Assembly: GCF_014490785.1 (NCBI RefSeq)
Contig: NZ_CP051489.1
Span: 1,859-25,858 of the forward strand
Source: Kosakonia sp. SMBL-WEM22
GTDB lineage: Bacteria; Pseudomonadota; Gammaproteobacteria; Enterobacterales; Enterobacteriaceae
Length of the DNA: 24,000 nucleotides
Direction: 5' to 3'
Position numbers and translations under genes: made by a program. Shown here one piece after another: positions 1,882 through 14,604 of the stretch. The notes beneath the pieces are model-generated. The model saw only the letters and a program-made list of their open reading frames with translations, was not told where the DNA came from and searched no databases. Within the stretch, counting starts at the first letter, position 1; every line of letters starts with the position of its first letter.

Positions 1882-2670
1882 TCAGCCCCTGTTAATGCCC
1901 CTGAGTAAGGCGACAGCCTCTTCACCCGGCATTTCAAACCGGACGCGGTGGCGTGCGGCGACATCCAGGGCAAAGACTTTCGTATATACCTCCGTCGAGC
2001 TGACGGACTTGTGCCCCATAAGGGTCTGCAGGATCTTGAGGGGGATGCCGGCATACAGCATGTGCATGGCATAACTGTGCCGGAACGTGTGCGGGGTCAC
2101 CGGCACGGAAAAGGTCACACCGTCTGCCGCTGCGGCCTCAACCGCCTCATTCAGCCAGGTCCTGACTGTCCTGTCGGTGATCTCCCAGATACGTGCCTTT
2201 TCCATTCTGCCGGTGCGCTTATTTCTCCGCTCCAGCGGGATCTTCAGCGTGGCCACCATCATCTCCAGCTGGCTGACGTAGTGGCTGTCGGACAGGGGAA
2301 CAATCCTGTGACTCGTGCTGCCGGCCGGCGCACGGCCTGCCGTCCGGGCTGCCTTTTCCGTGCGCTGTTTCAGTGTGGCCAGCTGAACAAACGGGGAGGG
2401 GGACGTCAGGTTAAAATCAGCGCGCGTCAGGGCCAGCGCTTCGTTTATGCGGGCACCGGAATTCCACAATGTTGACAGCAACATCCTGCGGTGCAGATCC
2501 GGGACGTAATGAAGCAGGGCACTGACTTCCGGGGCCAGAAGGTACTTTGGCAGTTCCTCCTGAACAAGTGCCATCTGGCGCAGAGCCAGGGCTGCCGGAT
2601 AGTCTATTGGTACCGGGAGCTGGATTCTCTCTGTGGCAGGCAGGTGTCCGTAAGGGGATGGAAAACTCAT
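1882..2670 (-). CDS. Tyrosine site-specific recombinase (phage-integrase family), short form of 262 aa
   Basis: Catalytic signature is visible: GARINEALALTRADF (Arg I), HTFRHSYAMHML (H-x-x-R) and GHKSVSSTEVYTKV (His...Tyr nucleophile). Only about 55 aa precede the catalytic domain. Confidence 0.9.
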   Translation of the reverse strand: MSFPSPYGHLPATERIQLPVPIDYPAALALRQMALVQEELPKYLLAPEVSALLHYVPDLHRRMLLSTLWNSGARINEALALTRADFNLTSPSPFVQLATLKQRTEKAARTAGRAPAGSTSHRIVPLSDSHYVSQLEMMVATLKIPLERRNKRTGRMEKARIWEITDRTVRTWLNEAVEAAAADGVTFSVPVTPHTFRHSYAMHMLYAGIPLKILQTLMGHKSVSSTEVYTKVFALDVAARHRVRFEMPGEEAVALLRGINRG

Positions 2671-3143
2671 GATACCTCTGGTGTTTCGCCATTGTCTTCC
2701 GACAGCTTCTGCCGCTTAACCGGCGCAAGATACTGGTTTAATTCATCTAGCATAATCAGTACACGGCGACCCGTCTTACGGGGAAACATCCTCCGCATTT
2801 CAGGCGTGAGCTGCTTACGTTCCCATCCGTAAGGGAAAATAATGCTGTATCCTGGTTCTCGGTGCGCATCCCTGTGGTCTGGGCCTGCGACAATACGTGC
2901 AACTTCCTGATTCAGGCGTTCTCCGCGCCAGCCCCACGCCGCGAGTCGCTTGCGGATCCGGCCCACCGGAAAACGGTTATCGGAGTTGCGGGGGAACATG
3001 ATTTTCCCGTCCTCATCCCGTCTGACCACAAACATATCCAGCGACTGCTGAATCAGCACATTCCGCACCGGAAAATGGCTGCGCATTTCTTTCATCATGC
3101 TGTGCATTACTCTACTCTGTATTGTTACGACCAGCAGCTGCAC
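2667..3143 (-). CDS. Hypothetical 158-aa basic protein, translationally coupled to the recombinase
   Basis: Its stop overlaps the recombinase start by 4 nt (ATGA at 2667-2670). Arg/Lys-rich. No family recognised. Confidence 0.6.
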   Translation of the reverse strand: MQLLVVTIQSRVMHSMMKEMRSHFPVRNVLIQQSLDMFVVRRDEDGKIMFPRNSDNRFPVGRIRKRLAAWGWRGERLNQEVARIVAGPDHRDAHREPGYSIIFPYGWERKQLTPEMRRMFPRKTGRRVLIMLDELNQYLAPVKRQKLSEDNGETPEVS

Positions 3144-3196
3144 TGGTGCCTTAAATTCTGCCTTCTGTTATTTTCGTTCCAGACAAATCCCGCCGG

Positions 3197-3526
3197 TCAC
3201 GAGATCGCCGCCCATTCCCATAATGTCATGAAAACCTGCCGGGCCTTCTCCTGGGAGGGCAGTTCAATCATATCCCCCTGCCGCAAATCGAGCTCTTCAT
3301 CAACCGTTTCGTTGTCTCGCATATGCAACCGCCATCCCGTCTCCGGAGGCGCGTTCTGTATGGCCAGCACGCGTCCTTCCGGAGACAGCAGTTCGCGGAG
3401 GATGTAGCAGGTGCCAGTCCGGGTCAAATTCCGCAGGCACATCACGGGGTACTCCTGAACCAGCTGGTCATACACACATTCTGCAGTATGGAAGTAATTC
3501 CGGTCCGCCTTACAAAAAACACACAT
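3197..3526 (-). CDS. Hypothetical 109-aa protein
   Basis: Co-oriented ORF in the same minus-strand gene string. No motif recognised. Confidence 0.45.
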   Translation of the reverse strand: MCVFCKADRNYFHTAECVYDQLVQEYPVMCLRNLTRTGTCYILRELLSPEGRVLAIQNAPPETGWRLHMRDNETVDEELDLRQGDMIELPSQEKARQVFMTLWEWAAIS

Positions 3527-3582
3527 ACGCCTTCCTTATTGAAAAATCCCGCCTACCATTTTTCCTGCCTGCCCGAATTCAT

Positions 3583-3879
3583 TCAGACATAACCTGTCAG
3601 AAAGAAGCACCCTTTTGCTTGAGCGCTGTCATTCAGATCAACCCATCTCATGAGGACTTCAGCATTATTGCCTGACCTAACCCCTTGCCAGTCGACCATT
3701 GACCAGCCGTAACTTTCCGGAGTATGTATCTTTCTGGCAACGATATCTCCGCTTTCATCAAGTACGAGATATTCCCCAACAAAGACTTTTTCATCGTCGG
3801 TAGGACGTTTATTTGAAACGAGGGATATTGTTTTTTGACCATCAGCAATGAGGGTATCAATCATTTCCACATAATCCAT
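3583..3879 (-). CDS. Hypothetical 98-aa protein
   Basis: Co-oriented ORF and first gene of the minus-strand string. No motif recognised. Confidence 0.5.
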   Translation of the reverse strand: MDYVEMIDTLIADGQKTISLVSNKRPTDDEKVFVGEYLVLDESGDIVARKIHTPESYGWSMVDWQGVRSGNNAEVLMRWVDLNDSAQAKGCFFLTGYV

Positions 3880-4335
3880 TCGTTACCCCTTCTTATAGAA
3901 TAGCCACTCAGGGTAATGATAACGCGCAGCACAATCAGCGGAGCACAATCCTGCGACTGTCACTCGAATGATTTTCACCTTACGCAATCATTACCTAACT
4001 GATAATAAGCATAAATATAAACACACAGGTAAATTACCGGATGACCGTTCCGGTGTGATCCGGTTTTCTGCGTATTCACGAATATCCGGAAGTGTACCAC
4101 GGTCAGGGAACAAGCAAAGCGCCCTTTTATGGTGGTGGGCACCGGGGTCACGATCATGGCCTAAAACACAACATATGGAAGAAATAGCAGCTGATGATAT
4201 GGCACATGTTGTGTTTCCGGGCCGGCGGGCAGCGGGTGACGATCTGCAGATCCGGAACTCACAGAAACCGGATCTTTGATAAAAATGAAGGAAGTAATGA
4301 TAGGCTCGGCCATGAAGCCATAAACAGCTGGACAA

Positions 4336-4434
4336 CATACGAACCGTATCCATTTTTAATAACGGTAATAACCGCGCCATCCGTTTCCCCGCGATCTGGA
4401 TTTTGAGGGAGTGAGAAAACTGGAGATCGTCCGG
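4336..4434 (+). pseudogene. vapB: vapB (AbrB/SpoVT-type antitoxin) 5' remnant with lost start codon, a frameshift and a truncation
   Basis: By-hand alignment to the intact vapB at 12361-12457 gives about 9 substitutions and one 1-nt deletion over about 94 nt. ATG has become ATA (catacgaacc versus catgagaacc). Homology stops abruptly after gtccgg at 4434. Confidence 0.8.
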
Positions 4435-4566
4435 CTTGTCCTGGTATTTACTCAGTATATGTACTCGTTCAATCCCTTTACATAGGACATGAATTAATGC
4501 CACCTTTGTATTTCAGCCACTTTTGGTGATTATATGGCAAAATTACAATAATCAGGAAGATATACT

Positions 4567-4583
4567 TCACGTTTTTAACGTGA
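4567..4583. promoter_or_regulatory. Perfect 17-bp palindrome TCACGTT-TTT-AACGTGA, a candidate operator
   Basis: The 7-bp arms are exact reverse complements. It lies in the AT-rich region about 320 bp upstream of the sugar operon start. Confidence 0.3.
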
Positions 4584-4771
4584 CTCACCATAATTAGAGT
4601 TATCACGGAGATATATATTCGTGACGACCTAACTATATAAACATCCACGCAAATATAATGTGGTTAAAACCCGAACCAAGGACAATAGAACTAAGTTTTA
4701 TATAAATATAATACACCTAGAGTGCAACACATCTAAATAATAAAAAGAAGATAAAACAATCAAACTTTCTT

Positions 4772-4787
4772 TGTGACGTGGTTAACA
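4772..4787. promoter_or_regulatory. CRP-like binding site TGTGA-N6-TAACA
   Basis: tttGTGAcgtggtTAACAaa matches the CRP consensus TGTGA-N6-TCACA with one mismatch, and the flanks are symmetric. A -10-like TATTAT at 4808-4813 would give class II spacing. The site sits upstream of ATG 4904. Confidence 0.45.
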
Positions 4788-4903
4788 AATTATAAATTGA
4801 TATATTTTATTATTTGATATTGTTCAGCCTGGTAGTGGTAACCTCATGAGTAGATTGATATTAATTCAATGGATGGTTGCAGGGTAAAAAGAGAGGAATT
4901 GAA

Positions 4904-6217
4904 ATGAAGAATGAAATGCATCAAGAAACCATAATATCTGAAATTGGTTTCTGTTGTTCTGATTTTACAGTTGAATATGCACTGTTGGTCAAGGATAAAT
5001 GCTATGTTGCCTATTATGATGAAAATCATACTATAACGGTAGCAAGTCGTAATCCTGACGAGAAAACATGGAAGCTAAGCCATCCGGAAGGTGAATGGTT
5101 ACCAGAAAAAAAACGATTTATGCATCAAACTGAATATGATAGCCACAATTACCTCACACTGGCAATGGACAGTAAAGGACATATTCATCTCTCCGGAAAT
5201 ATGCATAAAGACAAACTGGTCTGGTTCCGCTCAACAAAACCTTATGATATTCATTCTCTTGTTCAGAGGAAAATGACTGGAATAAGGGAGGGGAGTTCCA
5301 CCTATCCGTTATTTTTCTATGGCAGAAATGGAGAGCTTTTTTTTCGTTATCGCGATGGAGAAAGCGGAAACGGTGATGATATCTACAACTGCTGGAACGA
5401 AGATGAAAATAAATGGTTCAGATTACAGGGCAATCCATTATTAAGTGGTGAAGAACTCAGAAATGCATATGCCCGTTTACCCGTCTTTGGTCCGGATAAT
5501 CAATGGCATATGATCTGGATGTGGAGGGATACACCACACTGCGAAACCTGCCATGATCTTTCCTATGCACGCAGTCCGGATCTGCTCAAATGGTATTCGC
5601 ACGATGGCTATCGTTTACCCGTGCCGATCACCTTGCAGAAGAGCGATATTGTTGATGGCAGTTCTGTAAAACACGGGCTGATTAATATGAGCCAGAATAT
5701 TGGTTTCAGTGCCAAAGGTAAGCCGTTAATTACCTGGCATCGTTATGATGAAAAAGGCTTTTCTCAGGCCTGGATTGCCAGACCGGAAGGGAATAAATGG
5801 CTGATAAAACAAATCAGTGACTGGGAATTCCGCTGGGAGTTTAGTGGGATGGGTTCCATTCCTCCGGATGTCATTATCTCTGCACCCTATTTAAAAGATA
5901 ATTATCTCAGTGTTGATTTCAGATTATCCACTGGCGAGAGTGGAAACTGGTTGCTGGATCAAGAAACATTGGATGTCATAAAGACTTTTTCAGGCCCTGT
6001 CTCACCTCTTCCTGAACATTTTTATAAACCTTGCGAAGGCCTTGATGCGGAGGCAAAAGTGCAGATCATACCTGAGCTGTATCAATCATCTCCATCTTAT
6101 TTTTTGCGCTGGGAAGCGTTACCTATTCGAAGGGATATCTCTTCAGGGAAAAATATACGGCCAAGTATGTTAACACTGATAACTACCAAATGTTTCACGG
6201 AAGAGAAAGGAGATTAA
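4904..6217 (+). CDS. Cytoplasmic BNR-4 / beta-propeller-like carbohydrate-active enzyme (putative glycoside hydrolase or lyase); function unassigned
   Basis: The track ORF starts at TTG 4877. ATG 4904 is preferred because GAGAGGA lies 6 nt upstream. No signal peptide. Segments such as HNYLTLAMDSKGHIHLSGNMH and WMWRDTPHCETCHDLSYARSPD resemble proteins I remember annotated as BNR-4 repeat proteins. Operon context is a sugar transporter plus a porin. Confidence 0.6.
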   Translation: MKNEMHQETIISEIGFCCSDFTVEYALLVKDKCYVAYYDENHTITVASRNPDEKTWKLSHPEGEWLPEKKRFMHQTEYDSHNYLTLAMDSKGHIHLSGNMHKDKLVWFRSTKPYDIHSLVQRKMTGIREGSSTYPLFFYGRNGELFFRYRDGESGNGDDIYNCWNEDENKWFRLQGNPLLSGEELRNAYARLPVFGPDNQWHMIWMWRDTPHCETCHDLSYARSPDLLKWYSHDGYRLPVPITLQKSDIVDGSSVKHGLINMSQNIGFSAKGKPLITWHRYDEKGFSQAWIARPEGNKWLIKQISDWEFRWEFSGMGSIPPDVIISAPYLKDNYLSVDFRLSTGESGNWLLDQETLDVIKTFSGPVSPLPEHFYKPCEGLDAEAKVQIIPELYQSSPSYFLRWEALPIRRDISSGKNIRPSMLTLITTKCFTEEKGD

Positions 6218-6218
6218 A

Positions 6219-7487
6219 ATGATTTCGTCAGCGTCAAAAAACGCTTACATGCGGATAAGCTTATGTTTGTTTCTTTTTTATTTTTCATGGTCAACAACGT
6301 GGTCATTTCTGGCTATCTGGCTTGGAGATAATGTCGGCTTTACCAGTACACAGATAGGCTACACGCTGTCTGTAAATGCGCTATTTGCGCTCGCAATAAA
6401 GCCGGCGTTTGGCTTCATCATGGATAAACTTGGATTAAAAAAATCTTTATTAACCTGCGTGGCTATTGCTTCGGTATTCGCAGCTCCATTTTTTATCTAT
6501 GTATATCAGTATCTGCTGATGACCAGCATGGTTTTGGGCATGCTCCTCGGAGGGTTGTATCTGGGTACAGCTTATCTTGCTGGTGTACTGGTTTTTGAAA
6601 CATACGCAGACCGATACAGCCGGGCATTCGGGTTTGAATTCGGACGGGTCAGAATGTGGGGATCTCTTGGCTGGGCAATAGCTTCTATTTTTGCCGGGCA
6701 GTTATTTAATATAAATCCTCACTTTAACTTTATCATCACTTCCTGTGGTGCAGTTGCTGTTTTACTCATTCTTTTTACCCTTAAAACACAGGGCGACGGC
6801 ATTGACTGGCAGGCAGTGAATGCATCAAGAAAAGATCCCGTAAACCGCAAAGATGTCCGGATGCTGTTCCGGCATGCCAGTTTCTGGGTTCTGATGCTGT
6901 TTTATGGGGGGATTATCTGGATGATGCAAAGCGCAGAACAACAATTTCCACGTTATTTTGTGACGTTCTTTGCCGACCATCAGACAGGTAATGCCGTCTT
7001 GGGGTATATGGGATTTGTGCAGTCAGCATGTGAATTTTTGCTGATGTTCTCGATCCCTTTTCTGGTAAACCGGATAGGAGCCCGCAACGGTCTTCTTCTT
7101 GCTGGATTCGTTATTGGGCTCCGTCTTGTGCTGTCTGCCCTCGCAACTCATCCCTGGATGATTATTGTCATTAAACCGCTTTATGGTCTGGAAATGGCAC
7201 TGTTACTGGTTTCAATTTTTAAATTTCTCGCCGAGCATTTCGATAAGCGTCTGACCGGAACCATTTATATGGTACTCGGATGCTTTAATTACCTCGGAAT
7301 TACAGCAATAAATCCACTGGCTGGATATTTTTACGACAAGCATGGCTTCGCCTCCACATATATGGCTATGGGCTGCGCGGCGTGGTTAGTTACGCTTGCA
7401 GGGGTGAAGTTTTTAGGAAAACAAAAATCTTTATCGACGGAGAAATCAATGCACAATGCGACACAAGACGTTAACGCAATGAAATAA
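6219..7487 (+). CDS. LacY-family (oligosaccharide:H+ symporter) MFS transporter
   Basis: The N-terminus (FLFYFSWSTTWSFLAIWL...KPAFGFIMDKLGLKKSLL) parallels LacY (FFFYFFIMGAYFPFFPIWL...QPLFGLLSDKLGLRKYLL). About 12 hydrophobic segments. AAAGGAG RBS, and the start lies 1 nt after the upstream stop. Confidence 0.88.
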   Translation: MISSASKNAYMRISLCLFLFYFSWSTTWSFLAIWLGDNVGFTSTQIGYTLSVNALFALAIKPAFGFIMDKLGLKKSLLTCVAIASVFAAPFFIYVYQYLLMTSMVLGMLLGGLYLGTAYLAGVLVFETYADRYSRAFGFEFGRVRMWGSLGWAIASIFAGQLFNINPHFNFIITSCGAVAVLLILFTLKTQGDGIDWQAVNASRKDPVNRKDVRMLFRHASFWVLMLFYGGIIWMMQSAEQQFPRYFVTFFADHQTGNAVLGYMGFVQSACEFLLMFSIPFLVNRIGARNGLLLAGFVIGLRLVLSALATHPWMIIVIKPLYGLEMALLLVSIFKFLAEHFDKRLTGTIYMVLGCFNYLGITAINPLAGYFYDKHGFASTYMAMGCAAWLVTLAGVKFLGKQKSLSTEKSMHNATQDVNAMK

Positions 7488-7564
7488 AAAATTATTTTTT
7501 AATATTAATGCCTTTCAACAGGACTGGCGTCACAACAAATTACGCTCAAATTTCAGGAGTAAAA

Positions 7565-8260
7565 ATGAAAGCAAACCTGCCTCTCCTTTTTATTATCAGT
7601 GCTATTCATCCCATTTCAGCCTTCGCGGCTGGTGCGTGGATTGAAGGTCGTGAAGCTTTTAACACCGCCTCAGAGCAGCATGAATTTGTTCTGCGGGGAG
7701 GATATAACTTTGATGGTGGTGCAGGCATTATGCTTACTAATGCCTACAATACCGGTAAACTGGATCAGTTTAAGCACAGCTATAATGAACTCGAAGGATG
7801 GTATCCGCTTTTTAAGCCTACCACGGAGCTCACTATTTCACCCGCGCTTATTCTCACAGACAACGCTGATGGTTCAACTGTATCGCCATATGTTGATTTT
7901 AACTATAAATTTATTCCTGATTTTAATGTCACGTTAAGATACCGATACAATAATAAAAACTACGACAGCGTGGATCTTAATGGTAATAAAAATAAAGACA
8001 GCACACATCAGTTTGTTATGTACTGGAACCTCAAAATTAATGAAGAATGGGCCTATACTTTTGAACCGGATTATTTTATTCATGTTAAAGATTTCCATAG
8101 TAAAAACGGGAAAGATCATAACTGGGAGCTTAATAACAAGCTGACTTATACCCTGACACCACGGTGGAAGCCCTACTTAGAGGCATCATGGCTTGATCGA
8201 TGGAATCAGTACGAACGTGAACAATATCGTTTCAGGGTTGGGATAAGATATTATTTTTAG
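7565..8260 (+). CDS. KdgM/NanC-family oligosaccharide-specific outer-membrane porin
   Basis: Start at MKANL with AGGAG upstream. Signal peptide ends ...ISAFA/AGAW. About 210 aa mature length. Alternating beta-strand pattern with a terminal aromatic (RVGIRYYF), typical of small KdgM-family barrels. Confidence 0.8.
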   Translation: MKANLPLLFIISAIHPISAFAAGAWIEGREAFNTASEQHEFVLRGGYNFDGGAGIMLTNAYNTGKLDQFKHSYNELEGWYPLFKPTTELTISPALILTDNADGSTVSPYVDFNYKFIPDFNVTLRYRYNNKNYDSVDLNGNKNKDSTHQFVMYWNLKINEEWAYTFEPDYFIHVKDFHSKNGKDHNWELNNKLTYTLTPRWKPYLEASWLDRWNQYEREQYRFRVGIRYYF

Positions 8261-8544
8261 GTAATTATTTGAGTCAGTAATGTATCCCGTCATAACGATG
8301 GGATACGCTATGCTTCATAGCAACATATTCAGAATGCACCGGCTATATCGTGAAGCAGATTGTTGCGGAGTTTCTGAGTGATCGCCACCGGAACTTACTT
8401 TTTTCGGATCTGAGTGCAGAAAAGTGAATGAAGGAAAAGTGAATTACTATTCAAGACATGATGTCATATTTATTTCGTGCGTGCTTTTTTATTCATGTTG
8501 ATGCATTATTTCTATAATCCAGCAGCATTAAGGAAAAAAGCATC

Positions 8545-9630
8545 ATGCTCAGCCAACTGACATTACGGTTTCCGAAAAAACTCATTGAGGGGCTCAAGTC
8601 CCGCGCGTCCGCCGAGGACACCTCGGTCAACGCCCTCACCGAACGCCTGCTCGACGGCGCGCTGAAGTCCGCCCCGCCGGACGATGCCTTTTTTGCCCTT
8701 CAGGCCGATCCGGGCGGCACGCGGGAGACGCTCTACCGGAAGGTGGTTCGCGGTGAAACCTTCGGCCGCCACTCCCTGAAGCCGGCCGAGCTGCGCTGGC
8801 TGTTTGTTCAGGCGCATGCGGCCTGTCAGACCGGCAGCGCGTTCATGAGCTGGTCCGCGATGGAGGCCCTGCTGGGCATCACCTTTGACGCTCTGATTTA
8901 CGCCTCGGAAAACGGCATTCCCGTCGATACTTACTACATCAACCGGGCCTTCGATCTCGCCGGCGTGGACTACCGGGCCGAAACAGACGCCTTTATGGCG
9001 GCCATGCCGCACGGGGTGGACGCCACCTGGGCGGAGTTCCTGCTGCGCCCGCTTTCCTCCGGTGCCCTGAACCTGAACGCCTTTCCGGATGAAGCGATCG
9101 GGCGCATCTGCACGCCGGCGCGCCTGAAGGCCGCTTTCCCGCTGGTCGTCCGGGCGCAGCGGTCAGACGGGGAAAGCCTGAAAGCCTGGGCCGCGGCCAC
9201 CGGGCTGGTCACGGACGATCTTATCCTGACGGCGGAGGTGGCCGACGTCACTCTGCGCGCCGAGATTCGCGGAAACCGGCTGCCACAGCTGCCCGGGCAG
9301 CCCTGGCAGGCGCCGCAGTTCAGCCTTTTCGTGATCGCCGGCCGGGTGTCGCTGGCGCTGGGCTGGGAAGTGTTCAGCGCGCTGGTCCGCTATATGCAGG
9401 CCCGCGCCTGGCAGGGGAGTACGGACAGGTGGAGCGCCCGCGACAGCCTGGTGTCCCTGTACCTGCCACACGCGGAGGGGGGCAGGGCGGTTCTCGGACT
9501 GGATGGCACCCATATCGCCATGACGACGGAGGAATACCTGCAGCTGGAAGAAGCGCTCCTCGACGCGGTGGCGGATGCTGGGGCGGCGCCGGTGCTGGAT
9601 GAGCTGCGCGCCCTGTACGGGGATCTCTGA
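8545..9630 (+). CDS. Ribbon-helix-helix (Arc/CopG-like) N-terminal domain protein with a roughly 310-aa uncharacterised C-terminal region
   Basis: N-terminus is LTLRFPKKLIEGLKSRASAEDTSVNALTERLLDGAL, a beta-strand plus two helices in the RHH pattern. The rest is Ala/Leu/Arg-rich with no motif I recognise. GC-rich coding sequence sits behind an AT-rich promoter region (TATAAT at 8513-8518). Confidence 0.75.
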   Translation: MLSQLTLRFPKKLIEGLKSRASAEDTSVNALTERLLDGALKSAPPDDAFFALQADPGGTRETLYRKVVRGETFGRHSLKPAELRWLFVQAHAACQTGSAFMSWSAMEALLGITFDALIYASENGIPVDTYYINRAFDLAGVDYRAETDAFMAAMPHGVDATWAEFLLRPLSSGALNLNAFPDEAIGRICTPARLKAAFPLVVRAQRSDGESLKAWAAATGLVTDDLILTAEVADVTLRAEIRGNRLPQLPGQPWQAPQFSLFVIAGRVSLALGWEVFSALVRYMQARAWQGSTDRWSARDSLVSLYLPHAEGGRAVLGLDGTHIAMTTEEYLQLEEALLDAVADAGAAPVLDELRALYGDL

Positions 9631-9631
9631 C

Positions 9632-11887
9632 GTGCGCGCGGGAGAGAGAAGGGCCGGGCAGGATGCGCCGATTTCTGCCGATGACGACGATCGCTACGGG
9701 TTCACGGCGGTGGCCGACGGCCTGGCGGAAAGCATTCATGCGCTGGAGGATGACGCCGGAACGGTGATCGGTATTGAGGGCCGCTGGGGCGCGGGTAAAA
9801 CCAGCCTGCTGAACCTGCTGCTCGCCCGCCTCAGAGCCGCGAGCCCGCCCGGCACGCACGTGATCCACTTTTCACCCTGGCTGAGCGGACCGGGTGGCAA
9901 CCTTGCCGAGGCGCTGCTGCTGCCGGTGGCCGGCATTCTTCAGCAGGTCGAGTCGCAACGTGAAGAGGCTGACAGACGCCTGAGAAAGCGCATCGCGCGG
10001 TGGTGGAAAAAGCAGGGGAAGAGCCGCAACGCCGGCGCCGCCCTGAAGGTGCTGAAGTACGTGCAGCAGACCTCCGGCCACCTGGCGCCGCTGGCGGATC
10101 TTGCCGGCAACGTCGTACCGGGGTTTGGGCTGGCGGCAAAGGGCATGGACGCGCTGGCGAAGCTCGACCTCAGCGCGCGTGGTAAAACGGCCGCCGAGCT
10201 GCGCGGCGAGATTGAATCGCGGCTTGATGCGCTCGGGCTAACGTTTGTCGTCGTGATTGACGATCTGGACCGGCTGGAGCCCTCGCAGGCGGTGGAGGTG
10301 CTGCGCCTGGTGCGCTCGGTGGCGGATTTCACGCGCTTCCGCTACGTCATGTGCTACGACCGCGACGTGCTGGCGCACGCCGTTCATCAGGGGCTGGGCG
10401 TGCAGGACGGCCAGCTGTACCTGCAGAAAATCGTGCCGATCTCCTTCAGCCTGCCCCGACCCGAGTCGTTCACGCTGCGCAGACACTTCCGTGACGAAGC
10501 CACACAGCTTTATCGCGAGGTGCACGGCGACGCGCCGGATGCTGAAACCCTGTCTGCGCTGGAGCGGGCAACGGATGTCTATGGAGAGGCGCTGGCTACG
10601 CCGCGCGAGGTCGGTCAGGCGCTCAGCGCCATTCGCTTCCGCTATGCCGGCATGAAGGACTACGTCTGGTTCCCTGATCTGTGCCTGCTGCAGCTTATCC
10701 GCGTCACCAATCCGGCGCTTCACGACTGGGCCGAGCGCTACCTCTCGGAGCGCGCCATCGAGATGTCGGGTGACGCCACACTTGCGGATGAGGAAAAGCA
10801 GGAAATCACTGTGGCCCTGGACCACGCGCTGGCGCAGTTTCCCACTCACGCCGCCCGGTCCGGGTGGGAGCTGGGGCGGTGGGTGCCCGGGGTGCAGGGG
10901 CGCAGGGAAAAGGGCGTCGCTGCGTTTCAGGATGAAGACAAACACTCAGCCCATGCGGCTACGGCACGCCGGCGCCTGGCCAGTCCGGTGTACTGGCGCT
11001 ACTACTTTGCCTTCTCGGCTCCCGGCAACGTGCTGTCTGAGGGCTACGTGCAGAATATCCTCCGCCTTGCCTCAGAGGACAAGGAGGCGCTGGCGAAGCA
11101 ACTGCTGGAAAGCGTCACCGACAACGGCGTGTCGTCCCGCACCTGGTTTGAGCACATCCTTACGCGGCTGACGCCCGCGGTGACGCTTGCCGCAGGCGCG
11201 CAGGCGCGCGCTGGGCTGCTGGCTTTCCTGTTCGTTCACGCGGATGAAGTCATGCTCTACTACTACCGGCAGCGCGGCCTCATGTACCGATATCAGTCGA
11301 TTGGGATTGAGGAACTGGCCACGCAGCTGATCGCACAGGCTCTGGACACCAGTCGTCCGGAAGCGCTAGCCATGCTGCAGGAGCTGCTCGAAGAAAGCGC
11401 CGGTTCGACGTGGGCCGCCATCTATTTTCGTGACGTGATGCGGCTGCACCGGGCGGCAGGTAACCGTCCGGGCATGGAAAGCGAAAAGTTCCTTTCCGCC
11501 GTTGAGCTGGAAAGGCTGCGTCAGGGAATGGCAGAAAAGATGTCGCCACCGGCGTTGGACCACGACGTGGATAAGCTGGACGAAACGGGCAGCTACCTCT
11601 GGGCGTGGCGGGACATTGCCGGCATGGAAACCGTGGACCGTTGGGTGGAAGAAGAGTGCAGCGAGGATGCAGCATTCCTGCTGTTTCTACTGTGTATGCG
11701 CTCTCCCGTAACCAGCAGCGACAGGGGGCGTTATTTCCGGCTCGATATCACTACCGCTGAGAAACTGACGGATCAGCCAGGCCTTTACAGGGCGAGGCTT
11801 GATGAGATTGTCGCAAAAAATGACCCTGCCCTTTCCGGCCTTCAGAACGACGTGCTGGAGGCTATCAGTAACGGCAGGGACTACTGA
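9632..11887 (+). CDS. KAP-family P-loop NTPase, soluble form with no obvious TM insert
   Basis: Walker A GRWGAGKTS at nt 9779-9805. Walker B VVVIDDLDR at nt 10247-10273. The N-terminal DDDDRYGFTAVADGLAESI lead-in is typical of KAP proteins. Start is either GTG 9632 (1 nt after the upstream TGA, with GGGGA upstream) or ATG 9575 (56-nt overlap). Confidence 0.85.
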   Translation: MRAGERRAGQDAPISADDDDRYGFTAVADGLAESIHALEDDAGTVIGIEGRWGAGKTSLLNLLLARLRAASPPGTHVIHFSPWLSGPGGNLAEALLLPVAGILQQVESQREEADRRLRKRIARWWKKQGKSRNAGAALKVLKYVQQTSGHLAPLADLAGNVVPGFGLAAKGMDALAKLDLSARGKTAAELRGEIESRLDALGLTFVVVIDDLDRLEPSQAVEVLRLVRSVADFTRFRYVMCYDRDVLAHAVHQGLGVQDGQLYLQKIVPISFSLPRPESFTLRRHFRDEATQLYREVHGDAPDAETLSALERATDVYGEALATPREVGQALSAIRFRYAGMKDYVWFPDLCLLQLIRVTNPALHDWAERYLSERAIEMSGDATLADEEKQEITVALDHALAQFPTHAARSGWELGRWVPGVQGRREKGVAAFQDEDKHSAHAATARRRLASPVYWRYYFAFSAPGNVLSEGYVQNILRLASEDKEALAKQLLESVTDNGVSSRTWFEHILTRLTPAVTLAAGAQARAGLLAFLFVHADEVMLYYYRQRGLMYRYQSIGIEELATQLIAQALDTSRPEALAMLQELLEESAGSTWAAIYFRDVMRLHRAAGNRPGMESEKFLSAVELERLRQGMAEKMSPPALDHDVDKLDETGSYLWAWRDIAGMETVDRWVEEECSEDAAFLLFLLCMRSPVTSSDRGRYFRLDITTAEKLTDQPGLYRARLDEIVAKNDPALSGLQNDVLEAISNGRDY

Positions 11888-12233
11888 ACCGACAACAGCA
11901 GCTAAGAGGCTTCCCCAAGCAGGTATTCTGGTACCAGAGCTGCGGGCAGCTACGTGCGCTGAGTGGCCGCGGTCATGGACACGATGCCCTGACGCGGCCC
12001 CCTCGCGCCACGGCGGCCTGGCGTAAATATTCGGCCAACTGACCGCGCCCTTCCGGATGCGTCACAGATCCGACGCGCTACTCTTCTGTGTTTCCCCTGC
12101 GCCCATGTTCAGACCCTATTTGCATCAGCAAAAAACATTTCCCATACGACCGCCATTTTCTCCGCTTGATGAAGATCCGCTTCTGCCAGAAATCGGATCT
12201 GAGTGGAAAAGAGAGAAACTAACATAGGCAGGA

Positions 12234-12308
12234 CATATCCATATGTCAGGCATCTGCATATGTTATGCATATACACTTGCAAAGCATCTGCTTATACTAA
12301 GCATATGC
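12234..12308. promoter_or_regulatory. Candidate vapBC promoter/operator array
   Basis: Palindromes CATATccATATG (12234-12245), TATGCATA (12264-12271) and GCATATGC (12301-12308). Direct repeat GCATCTGC at 12250-12257 and 12284-12291. -10-like TATACT at 12293-12298. All lie within 130 bp of the vapB ATG. Confidence 0.45.
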
Positions 12309-12360
12309 GCACACCCGACGCATACTACCGTCCGGAAAGGTCCGGACTCAGGGAGAACTC

Positions 12361-12591
12361 ATGAGAACCGTATCCATTTTTAAAAACGGCAACAACCGCG
12401 CCATCCGCCTTCCCCGCGATCTAGATTTTGAGGGGGTGAGCGAACTGGAAATCGTCCGGGAAGGGGACAGCATCATCCTCCGTCCCGTCCGGCCGACCTG
12501 GAGTTCATTCCTGGAGCTCGAAAAAGCCGATCCGGATTTTATGGCTGAGCGCGAGGACGTTGTCAGCGACGAAGGACGATTTGACCTGTGA
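12361..12591 (+). CDS. vapB: VapB antitoxin (AbrB/SpoVT/MazE-type swapped-hairpin domain)
   Basis: MRTVSIFKNGNNRAIRLPRDLDFEG... matches the classic VapB/MvpA N-terminus. 76 aa. Overlaps vapC by 4 nt. Confidence 0.9.
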   Translation: MRTVSIFKNGNNRAIRLPRDLDFEGVSELEIVREGDSIILRPVRPTWSSFLELEKADPDFMAEREDVVSDEGRFDL

Positions 12592-13004
12592 ACAAAACGT
12601 ATATGCTGGATACTAATATCTGCTCATTCATCATGCGTGAGCAGCCGGAAGCGGTGCTGAAGCGCCTTGAGCAGACAGTGCTGCGCGGTCACCGCATTGT
12701 GGTCTCGGCCATCACTTACTCCGAGATGCGCTTCGGTGCAAACGGCCCGAAGGCCTCTCCCCGCCACGTGGCGCTGGTTGACGCATTCTGCTCCCGCCTT
12801 GATGCTGTGCTGCCCTGGGACCGCGCCGCTGTGGACGCCACCACGGAAATCCGGGTTGCGCTGCGCCTCGCCGGCACGCCAATTGGCCCGAACGACACGG
12901 CGATTGCCGGGCACGCCATCGCGGCCGGTGCAGTGCTGGTGACGAATAATATGAGGGAGTTTGAGCGGGTGCCGGATCTGATCCTGGAAGACTGGGTTAA
13001 ATAG
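12588..13004 (+). CDS. vapC: VapC PIN-domain toxin (tRNA-fMet endonuclease type)
   Basis: GTG start overlaps the vapB stop. MLDTNICSF..., SAITYSEMRFGA, GTPIGPNDTAIAGHA and LVTNNMREFERVP..EDW are collinear with enterobacterial VapC/MvpT as I remember them. Confidence 0.92.
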   Translation: MNKTYMLDTNICSFIMREQPEAVLKRLEQTVLRGHRIVVSAITYSEMRFGANGPKASPRHVALVDAFCSRLDAVLPWDRAAVDATTEIRVALRLAGTPIGPNDTAIAGHAIAAGAVLVTNNMREFERVPDLILEDWVK

Positions 13005-14604
13005 ACTCAGTCAGATTTGAAGTAATAAAGGTCCGCTTTGTGCCAGATATAGTCATTCACACCCTGAGAGTTACACTTTTAAGTGATTCAGGGTACGCGC
13101 TTATTGGTTACGAATATTGTGCCAGAATCATGTGATTTGATGATTGCCGCTTTGCTTTCGAGCCAGTAAGTGCTCCACGTTCGCTAACGAATACTCAGGG
13201 CATGCAGAAAAACTGCTGACTATATTCTTTCGAAGAGCGTGGAATGCATACAAATCCCCGATAAAAGGAGTTGGTGATGACTGCGAAAGATCAGTTTGCT
13301 GCTCATGTTGGTCTGGACTGGGCGGATAAAAAACACGATGTCTGCGTTCAGTTTAAAAACGGTGATCGCATATTTCATGTGATTGAACATACGCCTGAGG
13401 CACTTGATATCTGGCTCAATGAGTTACACCAGAGGGTGAAAGGCAGGATTGCTATTGCCATTGAGCTGAAGAAAGGCCCGGTGGTTTATGCACTCCAGAA
13501 GTACCCATTTGTCACTGTTTTTCCAGTACACGCCTTGTCACTGGCCCGCTACCGACAGGCTTTCTGGCCCAGCGGTGCGAAGGATGATCCGCAGGACGTT
13601 GAGCTGGCATTAGACCTGATGCTACGTTATCCCCACAAGATAAAAGCCATTGAAGCCGACAATCCGGATATCCGATTACTCCAGCAATTAGTTGAGCAGC
13701 GCCGACTGCTGGTCGAAGACAAGCGTCGCTTTGTTAATCGGCTCATCAACACACTTAAGCAGTATTACCCCCAGCCCCTGGAATGGTTCTCTCATCGGGA
13801 CAGCTCTCTGTTCTGCGAGCTAATCATTCGCTGGCCGAGCCTGCAACGACTCAAACGGGCTCGCAGCGATACTGTCCGTCATTTTATGAACGCTAAAGGT
13901 GGTCCTGCTGTTGCATATACCGAACAGCGGGTTGCAAGTATTGCCAGCGCTATTCCCCTGACCACAGATAAAACTGTCATCGAGGCAAATGCATTGATGG
14001 CAACAGCACTTGCATCCCAAATCAAACTGACAGGCGACCTAATCAGAACCTACGACGAACGTATTGAATCCTTATTCGATACGCTTCCGGATGCAGAACT
14101 GTTCAAATCACTCCCTGGAATGGGACCGTGTATGGGCCCACGGATGCTTGCCGCACTGGGTGATAACCGCGACCGCTTCAATAGCGCAGAAGAAATTCAA
14201 AACTACGCTGGCATCGCACCAGTAACCGAGCGAAGTGGTCAAAAATCCTGGGTACACTGGCGTTGGCAGTGCGCAAAGTTCGTCCGACAGACATTCGTGG
14301 AATGGACTGCGAAGACGGTTAACTCATCGTACTGGGCCAGACTTTATTACCAGGGCCAGCGAGAAAAAGGGAAATCGCATCAATCAGCTATCCGGGCTCT
14401 GGCGTTTAAATGGATAAGGATCATTTACCGTTGTTGGAAGACCAAAACCCGGTACGACGAAGCGAAATACTTGCTGGCACTGGAAGCGCGAAAGTCCCCC
14501 TTACTGAAGCCATAAAAAGCTTGTCGAATGTCTCAGGGCGTGAAGCGGACATTTCATTAATCGCATTGCCTGAAGTTTAGTAAGATGCCAAAAGGAAATT
14601 CATC
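13005..14604 (+). mobile_element. Interval containing an IS110-family insertion sequence; exact ends unresolved
   Basis: A single DEDD transposase gene with about 270 nt of non-coding sequence 5' and about 90 nt 3'. No terminal inverted repeats, as expected for IS110. TCAGGG-containing motifs at about 13061-13094 and about 14531-14540 could mark the junctions. Confidence 0.6.
13277..14515 (+). CDS. IS110-family DEDD transposase/recombinase
   Basis: AAGGAG lies 6 nt before ATG 13277. N-terminal HVGLDWADKKHDV and AIAIELKKGP, then AKDDPQDVELALDL (the K-x-D-x-x-D-A-type motif). C-terminal LPGMGPCMGPRMLAALGDNRDRFNSAEEIQNYAGIAPVTERSGQ matches the Transposase_20 HhH region. Confidence 0.88.
   Translation: MTAKDQFAAHVGLDWADKKHDVCVQFKNGDRIFHVIEHTPEALDIWLNELHQRVKGRIAIAIELKKGPVVYALQKYPFVTVFPVHALSLARYRQAFWPSGAKDDPQDVELALDLMLRYPHKIKAIEADNPDIRLLQQLVEQRRLLVEDKRRFVNRLINTLKQYYPQPLEWFSHRDSSLFCELIIRWPSLQRLKRARSDTVRHFMNAKGGPAVAYTEQRVASIASAIPLTTDKTVIEANALMATALASQIKLTGDLIRTYDERIESLFDTLPDAELFKSLPGMGPCMGPRMLAALGDNRDRFNSAEEIQNYAGIAPVTERSGQKSWVHWRWQCAKFVRQTFVEWTAKTVNSSYWARLYYQGQREKGKSHQSAIRALAFKWIRIIYRCWKTKTRYDEAKYLLALEARKSPLLKP

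Follow-up and report, generated by a model that had tools for sequence, protein, structure and literature searches.

The closest described systems are the rfsF/ResD loci of plasmid F and of IncI1 and IncR plasmids. The rfsF sites of F have been put at the start of its RepFIA segment, which begins at nt 45922 (PMC4398462), and in R64 a segment described as 'rfsF to yfcA' starts at nt 43,620 (PMC8004404). Gene sets switch at rfsF in IncI1 plasmids (PMC8004404). In IncR plasmids vagCD lies beside rfsF; some of these plasmids lose homology at rfsF, and some have foreign inserts just downstream (PMC9412624). Capture of modules at rfsF by a ResD-type recombinase has only been suggested (PMC9412624, PMC12310702). 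The type of locus, its behavior as a hotspot, and its vapBC neighborhood are already published for IncR and IncI1 plasmids.

The DNA analyzed here (the window) is a stretch of 24,000 nt from Kosakonia sp. SMBL-WEM22. It comprises bases 1859-25858 of a 157,340-bp replicon (51.5% GC), which accompanies a 5.04-Mb chromosome. The replicon is an F-like conjugative plasmid. Table 1 lists the features discussed below.

Table 1. Features of the locus. Coordinates are those of the window except where the plasmid is named.
Feature	Position	Strand	Description
resD	1882..2670	-	ResD-type tyrosine recombinase (plasmid multimer resolvase); Pfam Phage_integrase; F ResD match
Three small ORFs upstream of resD	2667..3879 (2667-3143, 3197-3526, 3583-3879)	-	ccdAB slot of F
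Conserved non-coding 'oriV1-like' flank	3899..4247	.	accompanies rfsF
rfsF-like site #1 (putative ResD site)	4248..4275	+	AGATCCGGAAC / TCACAG / AAACCGGATCT; both arms present
Remnant vapB leader	4276..4336	+	82-nt operator/promoter deletion scar at ~4305/4306; degenerate Shine-Dalgarno
vapB pseudogene	4337..4434	+	codons 1-33 only; ATG>ATA, K8N, -1 frameshift after 4384, S27R, E28K
AT-rich sugar block	4435..8387	+	442-nt leader; BNR_4 protein 4877-6217; LacY-type symporter 6219-7487
AT-rich sugar block, distal part	7508-8260, then tail	+	OmpL/KdgM porin, then 127-nt tail; Pfam and NCBIfam matches
rfsF-like site #2 (putative ResD site)	8384..8411	+	GCCACCGGAAC / TTACTT / TTTTCGGATCT; outer 4 nt of left arm GCCA, not AGAT
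pifC-like / pifA-like KAP NTPase	8545-9630 / maximal ORF 9575-11887	+	F homologues; KAP_NTPase Pfam
rfsF-like site #3 (putative ResD site)	12173..12200	+	AGATCCGCTTC / TGCCAG / AAATCGGATCT; heads intact vapBC
Intact vapBC cassette	12201..13004	+	leader, CATATG-rich operator ~12234-12330, vapB 12361-12591, vapC 12588-13004
Frameshifted 3' vapC fragment	plasmid 76186-76537 (L044 ~1687-2038)	minus in L044	codons ~19-137; directly after fhuE-type receptor gene

The rfsF-like sites and the modules they head

The integrase is closely related to the resolvase of F, and it is accompanied by short motifs that match the site of F and R64. It shares 202 of 243 amino acids (83%) with F-plasmid ResD (E 2e-152). 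The 28-bp motif has inverted arms and is presumably divided into a left arm, a spacer, and a right arm of 11, 6, and 11 nt. Three copies are found in the genome, and no others. The same motif is present in F between pifC and ccdA (NC_002483, 45909-45952) and in R64 (NC_005014, 43607-43649). Since the motif agrees with F and R64 in both sequence and position, and since the integrase is so similar to F ResD, the three copies are considered rfsF-like and putative ResD sites, an assignment based on the coordinates given in the two papers on F and R64 and on the identity of the sequences. A profile built without site #2 recovers it with an E value of 4e-4 genome-wide, and a profile from other plasmids only recovers it at 1.4e-3. 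The latter profile, which includes F and R64, also matches 4098-4260 (E 9e-29).

The rest of the locus resembles that of F, and also those of R64 and ColIb-P9 (IncI1) and, by vagCD, those of IncR plasmids. As in the F-type locus, a divergent operon and a conserved 'oriV1-like' flank are present. The flank is 71-81% identical to the equivalent block in Klebsiella, Enterobacter, Citrobacter, and Kosakonia plasmids. Unlike F, the plasmid has three small ORFs in the place of ccdAB. They have no Pfam or NCBIfam match, and the slot is occupied by ccdA-ccdB in F and by other small hypothetical genes in relatives. As in IncR plasmids (PMC9412624), vapBC/vagCD adjoins the site and foreign DNA sits just downstream. 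The locus differs from those of F, IncI1, and IncR plasmids in having three sites in direct order on one plasmid and a module that joins a pseudogene stub to a sugar operon of chromosomal type.

Two other sequence elements were found near the sites. A large palindrome (ACACAACATAT ... ACATGTTGTGT) lies at 4164-4216 in the rfsF flank and is kept in F, R64, and most related plasmids; it is a candidate for an accessory site or for the promoter/operator that serves the resD operon. Within the coding sequence of resD, at 2491-2505, there is an rfsF half-site (GCAGATCCGGGAC), and F resD contains these words too. The half-site could be due to chance, arising from a conserved protein, or it could be an extra putative ResD binding site.

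Each of the three sites heads a module: the vapB stub with the sugar operon, pifC-pifA, and the intact vapBC. The second module is a diverged form of the pifC-pifA phage-exclusion operon of F and has the same position relative to rfsF and resD. However, the full-length proteins are only 36% and 40% identical to PifC and PifA of F, and the stub and sugar block separate pifCA from the resD backbone. The pifC gene and its leader (8398-9609) have 87.6% DNA identity to a P. ananatis plasmid in which pifC-pifA directly follows resD-rfsF, and homology to the pif leaders of P. ananatis and C. freundii begins at 8388-8398. The likely start of pifA is the GTG at 9632, one base past the pifC stop as in F, and not the ATG at 9575. 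The intact vapBC has MazE_antitoxin and PIN Pfam matches, and this module is 94.9% identical to that of K. cowanii Pa82.

A similar layout is seen in related plasmids. The Klebsiella plasmids pCAV1042-183 and pKPC_CAVP366 have resD, small ORFs, the conserved block, the motif, the operator, and vapBC in that order. In P. ananatis and C. freundii plasmids the backbone is followed by a site and pifC, and the C. freundii plasmid has a second site after pif and then a vapB operator interrupted by IS26. In plasmids of K. cowanii LT-1, S. marcescens, and K. sacchari, two sites follow the backbone; between them lies other cargo (DUF3800, HEPN, and GIY-YIG genes), and vapBC comes after the second. The arrangement resD - rfsF - cargo - rfsF' - vapBC therefore recurs in the plasmids of C. 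freundii, K. cowanii LT-1, S. marcescens, and K. sacchari.

The cargo next to rfsF in relatives is often defense-like (L001 6266-8835, L032 4336-6922, and L043 2690-4777). It includes an AAA ATPase with a UvrD helicase, DUF3800 with a HEPN nuclease, and a GIY-YIG nuclease, and the PifA found here fits this pattern. Internal copies of the rfsF-like motif in other plasmids, away from the resD backbone (L030 9520-9590, L032 6981-7055, and L031 3752-3830 and 6888-6953), have a degenerate left arm with ATTTCCG or CTTCCG instead of AGATCCG. The degenerate left arms of internal copies may keep stacked cargo from being resolved away.

Integron cassettes and the pdif modules of Acinetobacter are site-bounded cargo modules. 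The present locus may be analogous to these systems, in that a short recombinase site heads each module, the recombinase gene lies alongside, and toxin-antitoxin and defense genes are common among the cargo. It differs from them in that the sites are partly degenerate, the boundary at 4434/4435 is away from any site, and movement of the modules by ResD is putative.

A sister of this plasmid shows which vapBC is native to the locus. The K. cowanii Pa82 plasmid (NZ_CP069321) has about 77 kb in common with it, with 95-96% identity in the transfer genes. There resD, two small ORFs, an rfsF-like site, the operator, and vapBC form one unbroken row. The window ceases to match Pa82 after 2622, near codon 16 of resD, and matches it again from 12174, where the left arm of site #3 has just begun. 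This adjacency and these breakpoints show that the intact vapBC, and not the stub, is the native rfsF neighbor in the lineage of this plasmid. The stub is thus part of a lineage-specific mosaic of 9.5 kb (2623 to 12172). Homology to the K. cowanii LT-1 plasmid stops at 2622 as well, and the common end point at 2622/2623 implies that the N-terminus of ResD and the upstream small ORFs are swapped as one block. Each piece of the mosaic is closest to a different source: 3254-4258 to an E. bugandensis plasmid (77%), the stub to Serratia-type alleles, the sugar operon to Superficieibacter, and pifC to P. ananatis.

The vapB stub and its lineage

The segment 4337-4434 is a decayed 5' fragment of vapB from a second vapBC cassette. 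An earlier note on this DNA had estimated about 89% identity between 4341-4434 and the intact vapB. Pairwise BLASTN of 4150-4550 against 12050-12650 agrees with this estimate: 4336-4434 matches 12360-12459 with 88 of 100 identities and one 1-nt gap (E 6e-28). In the entire 5.19-Mb genome the stub has no match apart from itself and the intact vapB (E 1.5e-28). The same pairwise run gives a looser second block, 4245-4322 against 12170-12243 (53/78, 68%, E 1e-5). The similarity reported earlier for 4240-4310 is thus real, but its reading as vapB leader has to be given up, because what lies there is an rfsF-like site of 28 bp. The stub sits in the canonical vapBC slot beside resD, as in the Klebsiella plasmids, in line with the proposal that a dead 5' stub represents a second vapBC here.

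The stub has been damaged in its coding sequence and in its leader. Its first 33 codons were compared with the same codons in 11 intact alleles of vapB, taken from plasmids and from related genomes. The intact alleles encode a near-invariant peptide and differ almost only at synonymous positions, and they have 79-88 of 99 positions in common with the stub. Five changes in the stub are absent from all 11 intact alleles, and every one is damaging. The start codon at 4337-4339 is ATA instead of ATG, and a single base is lost after 4384 (codon 17), producing a -1 frameshift; both of these lesions had been seen previously. Three missense changes are private to the stub (Lys8 to Asn, Ser27 to Arg, and Glu28 to Lys). 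The Shine-Dalgarno sequence is AGCTGG in place of AGGAGG. The remnant leader was aligned with the Serratia, K. sacchari, Klebsiella, and resident leaders. It lacks the CATATG-rich operator array, and 82 nt stand opposite the main gap in the comparison sequences, with the exception of K. sacchari plasmid pKS2022, where there are 116 nt. The alignment with the resident copy has 19 more gapped columns, so that about 100 nt of the operator region are missing in all, the size given in the earlier note.

Homology to every vapB allele examined stops at 4434, after codon 33. The GC content falls from 0.46 (4248-4434) to 0.31 (4435-4876) and is 0.41 over the whole block (4435-8387), so that the abrupt end beside AT-rich DNA (31-41% GC) described before is confirmed. 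With an ATA start, a frameshift, and an end at codon 33 instead of the full 76 codons, the stub has no intact reading frame. No vapC was found nearby by tblastn, and the autoregulated operator is likewise deleted (82 nt). In comparison with plasmid type II toxin-antitoxin modules of the vapBC/vagCD/mvpAT type, the stub is like the intact alleles in codons 1-33 and has a typical leader, but it is frameshifted and lacks the promoter/operator, the start codon, the C-terminal toxin-binding half, and vapC. It is a relic of such a module and not a module itself.

The stub and the resident vapB have different nearest relatives. The leader and coding part of the stub are 85% identical to Serratia and K. 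sacchari alleles and 67% identical to the resident copy. The region 4306-4336 and the CGA second codon correspond to the leader type of Serratia, Pectobacterium, and Kosakonia sacchari plasmids, which is marked by a GGCCATGAGGCC hairpin just 5' of the ribosome-binding site. K. cowanii alleles share 97% identity with the resident vapB, whose leader is of the K. cowanii type. The synonymous variants of the stub occur also in several natural vapB alleles. By leader type and nearest alleles, the two copies thus belong to two vapBC lineages. The stub is a different allele with a different leader type, and not the duplicate of the resident vapB that it was first taken for.

The 4434/4435 junction and the sugar block

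The missing part of the second vapBC was not found in this genome. The rest of vapB or vapC is absent from the far end of the AT-rich block by tblastn with VapB and VapC, as the earlier note had stated. Over the whole genome the same search hits, apart from the intact pair, a single unrelated and decayed vapC scar on this plasmid, at a distance of 70 kb. This scar (76186-76537) was considered as the distal half of the stub and rejected; it begins at codon 19, has at most 76% identity to any allele, and lies beside fhuE.

Some features of the vapC scar and of the intact vapC are worth recording. The scar is 99% conserved in Pa82 of K. cowanii, and the words that come after it, TCCGCTTTGTGCCAG, are also found behind the intact vapC at 13031-13045. 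The motif past the vapC stop (13030-13047) is found behind the distant scar and also behind a vapC-like gene in L013. Its recurrence suggests that it may be a flank of the vapBC cassette, which would shift the left end of the IS110 element further right. The IS110 after vapC is single-copy in the genome, and a rearrangement between IS110 copies is therefore excluded.

The two ends of the sugar block are of different kinds. Family matches inside the block are limited to the ORFs of the three sugar genes. A 616-kb Superficieibacter contig, with no rfsF nearby, is 82% identical over the operon (4897-8264). The flanks of the block (4435-4896 and 8265-8387) have no match. No IS ends, transposon ends, target duplications, or terminal (inverted) repeats are present at 4435 or 8387. 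The left junction has no clear microhomology and lies off any rfsF site. It is an illegitimate junction within vapB. On the right, the block ends at site #2, and similarity to other plasmids starts at 8388; because the rfsF-like motif recurs at 8384-8411, the block is bounded on this side by a putative recombination site. The break misses the presumed 6-bp crossover region of site #2 by 7 nt, an offset that does not fit a clean ResD exchange. No traces of the resD backbone are found left of 8388. The sole repeat that brackets the stub and sugar unit is the rfsF core, at 4252-4275 and 8388-8411, 4136 bp apart. Of the module boundaries, the Pa82 break is at site #3, the break at 4434 is away from any site, and the break at site #2 is 7 nt off the presumed spacer.

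The junction at 4434/4435 has not been found elsewhere. It is absent from PLSDB, from 19 species-representative genomes of the same genus, and from 21 other related genomes, and the 29-nt exact junction word is absent from metagenome contigs. No donor or intermediate plasmid bearing the junction was found in any of these sources.

These results bear on the checks proposed in the earlier note. It had asked whether the break coincides with the end of a known element, and the search found no IS end, repeat, or target duplication there. It had also suggested a search of related genomes for the uninterrupted arrangement; the junction itself was not recovered, but resD-rfsF-vapBC is uninterrupted in Pa82. 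The view that the event was no simple insertion is supported, and of the alternatives that had been offered, recombination between two vapBC-bearing elements fits best. The note missed the rfsF-like site at the far end of the block (8384-8411), and it also missed that Pa82 has the intact copy, and not the stub, as the native neighbor of rfsF.

Origin and significance of the stub

The best overall explanation, with a probability of about 0.78, is that the stub comes from a foreign vapBC lineage, entered through plasmid exchange at rfsF, was truncated by an illegitimate event, and then decayed. The resD operon, the 'oriV1-like' block, and rfsF constitute the known ResD multimer-resolution locus, which acts as a cargo-exchange boundary in related plasmids, and beside which vapBC (equivalent to vagCD) is normally found. 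The segment 4248-4434 is the head of one module, with an rfsF site, a vapB leader, and the first 33 codons. This foreign rfsF-vapBC head may have arrived, or may have been retained, by plasmid-plasmid exchange at rfsF, either through ResD-mediated cointegration or through homologous recombination in the conserved flanks, with deletions afterwards. An illegitimate event at 4434/4435, either in this plasmid or in a donor, would have fused the head to DNA with the sugar operon, at the cost of the 3' part of vapB and the entire vapC. With the toxin gone the stub would have been free of selection, and a related VapB is encoded 8 kb downstream, so the loss may have been tolerated through cross-protection by the second copy. 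During its decay the stub would have lost the operator, the ribosome-binding site, and the start codon and gained the frameshift and three missense changes. The order of these steps and the involvement of ResD are likewise what we infer.

Two other readings concern what the stub is, and both are improbable. It could derive from the leader and 5' end of the resident vapB by an intramolecular duplication or a Campbell-type event, with 12% divergence since. Both copies have the same orientation, lie 8 kb apart on one plasmid, and stand behind the same kind of site, and the identity of the coding part to the resident gene (87/99) equals the best of any allele. However, the stub leader from operator to start codon has the GGCCATGAGGCC hairpin and CGA and cannot be aligned with the resident leader, 7 of the 12 coding differences are synonymous variants found in other natural alleles and not private decay, and the sister plasmid carries the resident type only. 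A local duplication was already disfavored and is very unlikely. The stub could also have a function, as a decoy that titrates VapB, as a small RNA, or as part of an antisense ORF. Two long ORFs, 3991-4503 (minus strand, 170 aa) and 3968-4279 (plus strand), cross the rfsF flank and the stub; the former runs across the junction, and similar antisense ORFs are annotated by PGAP at the same place in Klebsiella plasmids. As a candidate gene the antisense ORF was rejected, as the part in common is only the reverse of the vapB codons (18/40 identities) and the antisense ORFs have no family match; the two ORFs are thus most likely not genes. In addition, Rfam matches nothing in the window but an IS3 frameshift element, the deletion has removed precisely the operator to which VapB would bind, and the substitution pattern is that of neutral decay. 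A function for the stub is scarcely credible, and it is regarded as currently functionless.

The other readings concern how the stub arrived. A 4136-bp circle containing the right half of rfsF, the vapB stub, the sugar operon, and a pseudo-site could have been excised elsewhere by ResD and integrated into a canonical rfsF that lay upstream of pifC. Truncation would then have preceded arrival, and vapBC would never have been intact at this spot. Several observations are consistent with this. The left arm of site #1 and the right arm of site #2 rebuild a canonical rfsF (AGATCCGGAAC ... TTTTCGGATCT), and such an rfsF sits upstream of pifC-like or other cargo in relatives, where pifCA can directly follow resD-rfsF. 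The only bounding repeat is the rfsF core with its 4136-bp spacing, and the sequence changes from backbone type to cargo type right after AACT, at the border between arm and spacer. On the other hand, the spacers of sites #1 and #2 differ at three of six positions, the left arm of site #2 retains only 7 of 11 positions, the break is outside the presumed crossover region, and the searches turned up no circle, donor, or empty site. Homologous recombination followed by deletion would look identical. Because of the spacer mismatch (3/6) and the 7-nt offset of the break, entry as a cassette is ranked as a rival, one that is unlikely but still has to be taken seriously. A more general proposal is that ResD captures circular modules and stacks them at rfsF in the manner of integrons or pdif modules, and that the 4136-bp unit entered via the pseudo-site GCCACCGGAAC. 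We consider this doubtful. If it were true, internal sites would persist only with one crippled arm, which would explain the degenerate left arms in several plasmids.

In the preferred reading, exchange at rfsF followed by illegitimate truncation, the stub is an ordinary by-product of plasmid recombination at a known ResD/rfsF gene-swapping site. Its value is that of a dated scar of this recombination, and an antisense ORF that crosses it should not be called a gene in annotation. The locus is a further well-resolved instance of the published rfsF hotspot type and adds one more case for rfsF as a cargo hotspot, outside the clinical IncR, IncI1, and IncF plasmids. It also offers a clear case in which a toxin-antitoxin cassette decays once a related copy shares the replicon. 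For this plasmid lineage, it appears that 9.5 kb of lineage-specific cargo, for sugar uptake and Pif phage exclusion, was built between resD and the native vapBC by rfsF exchange.
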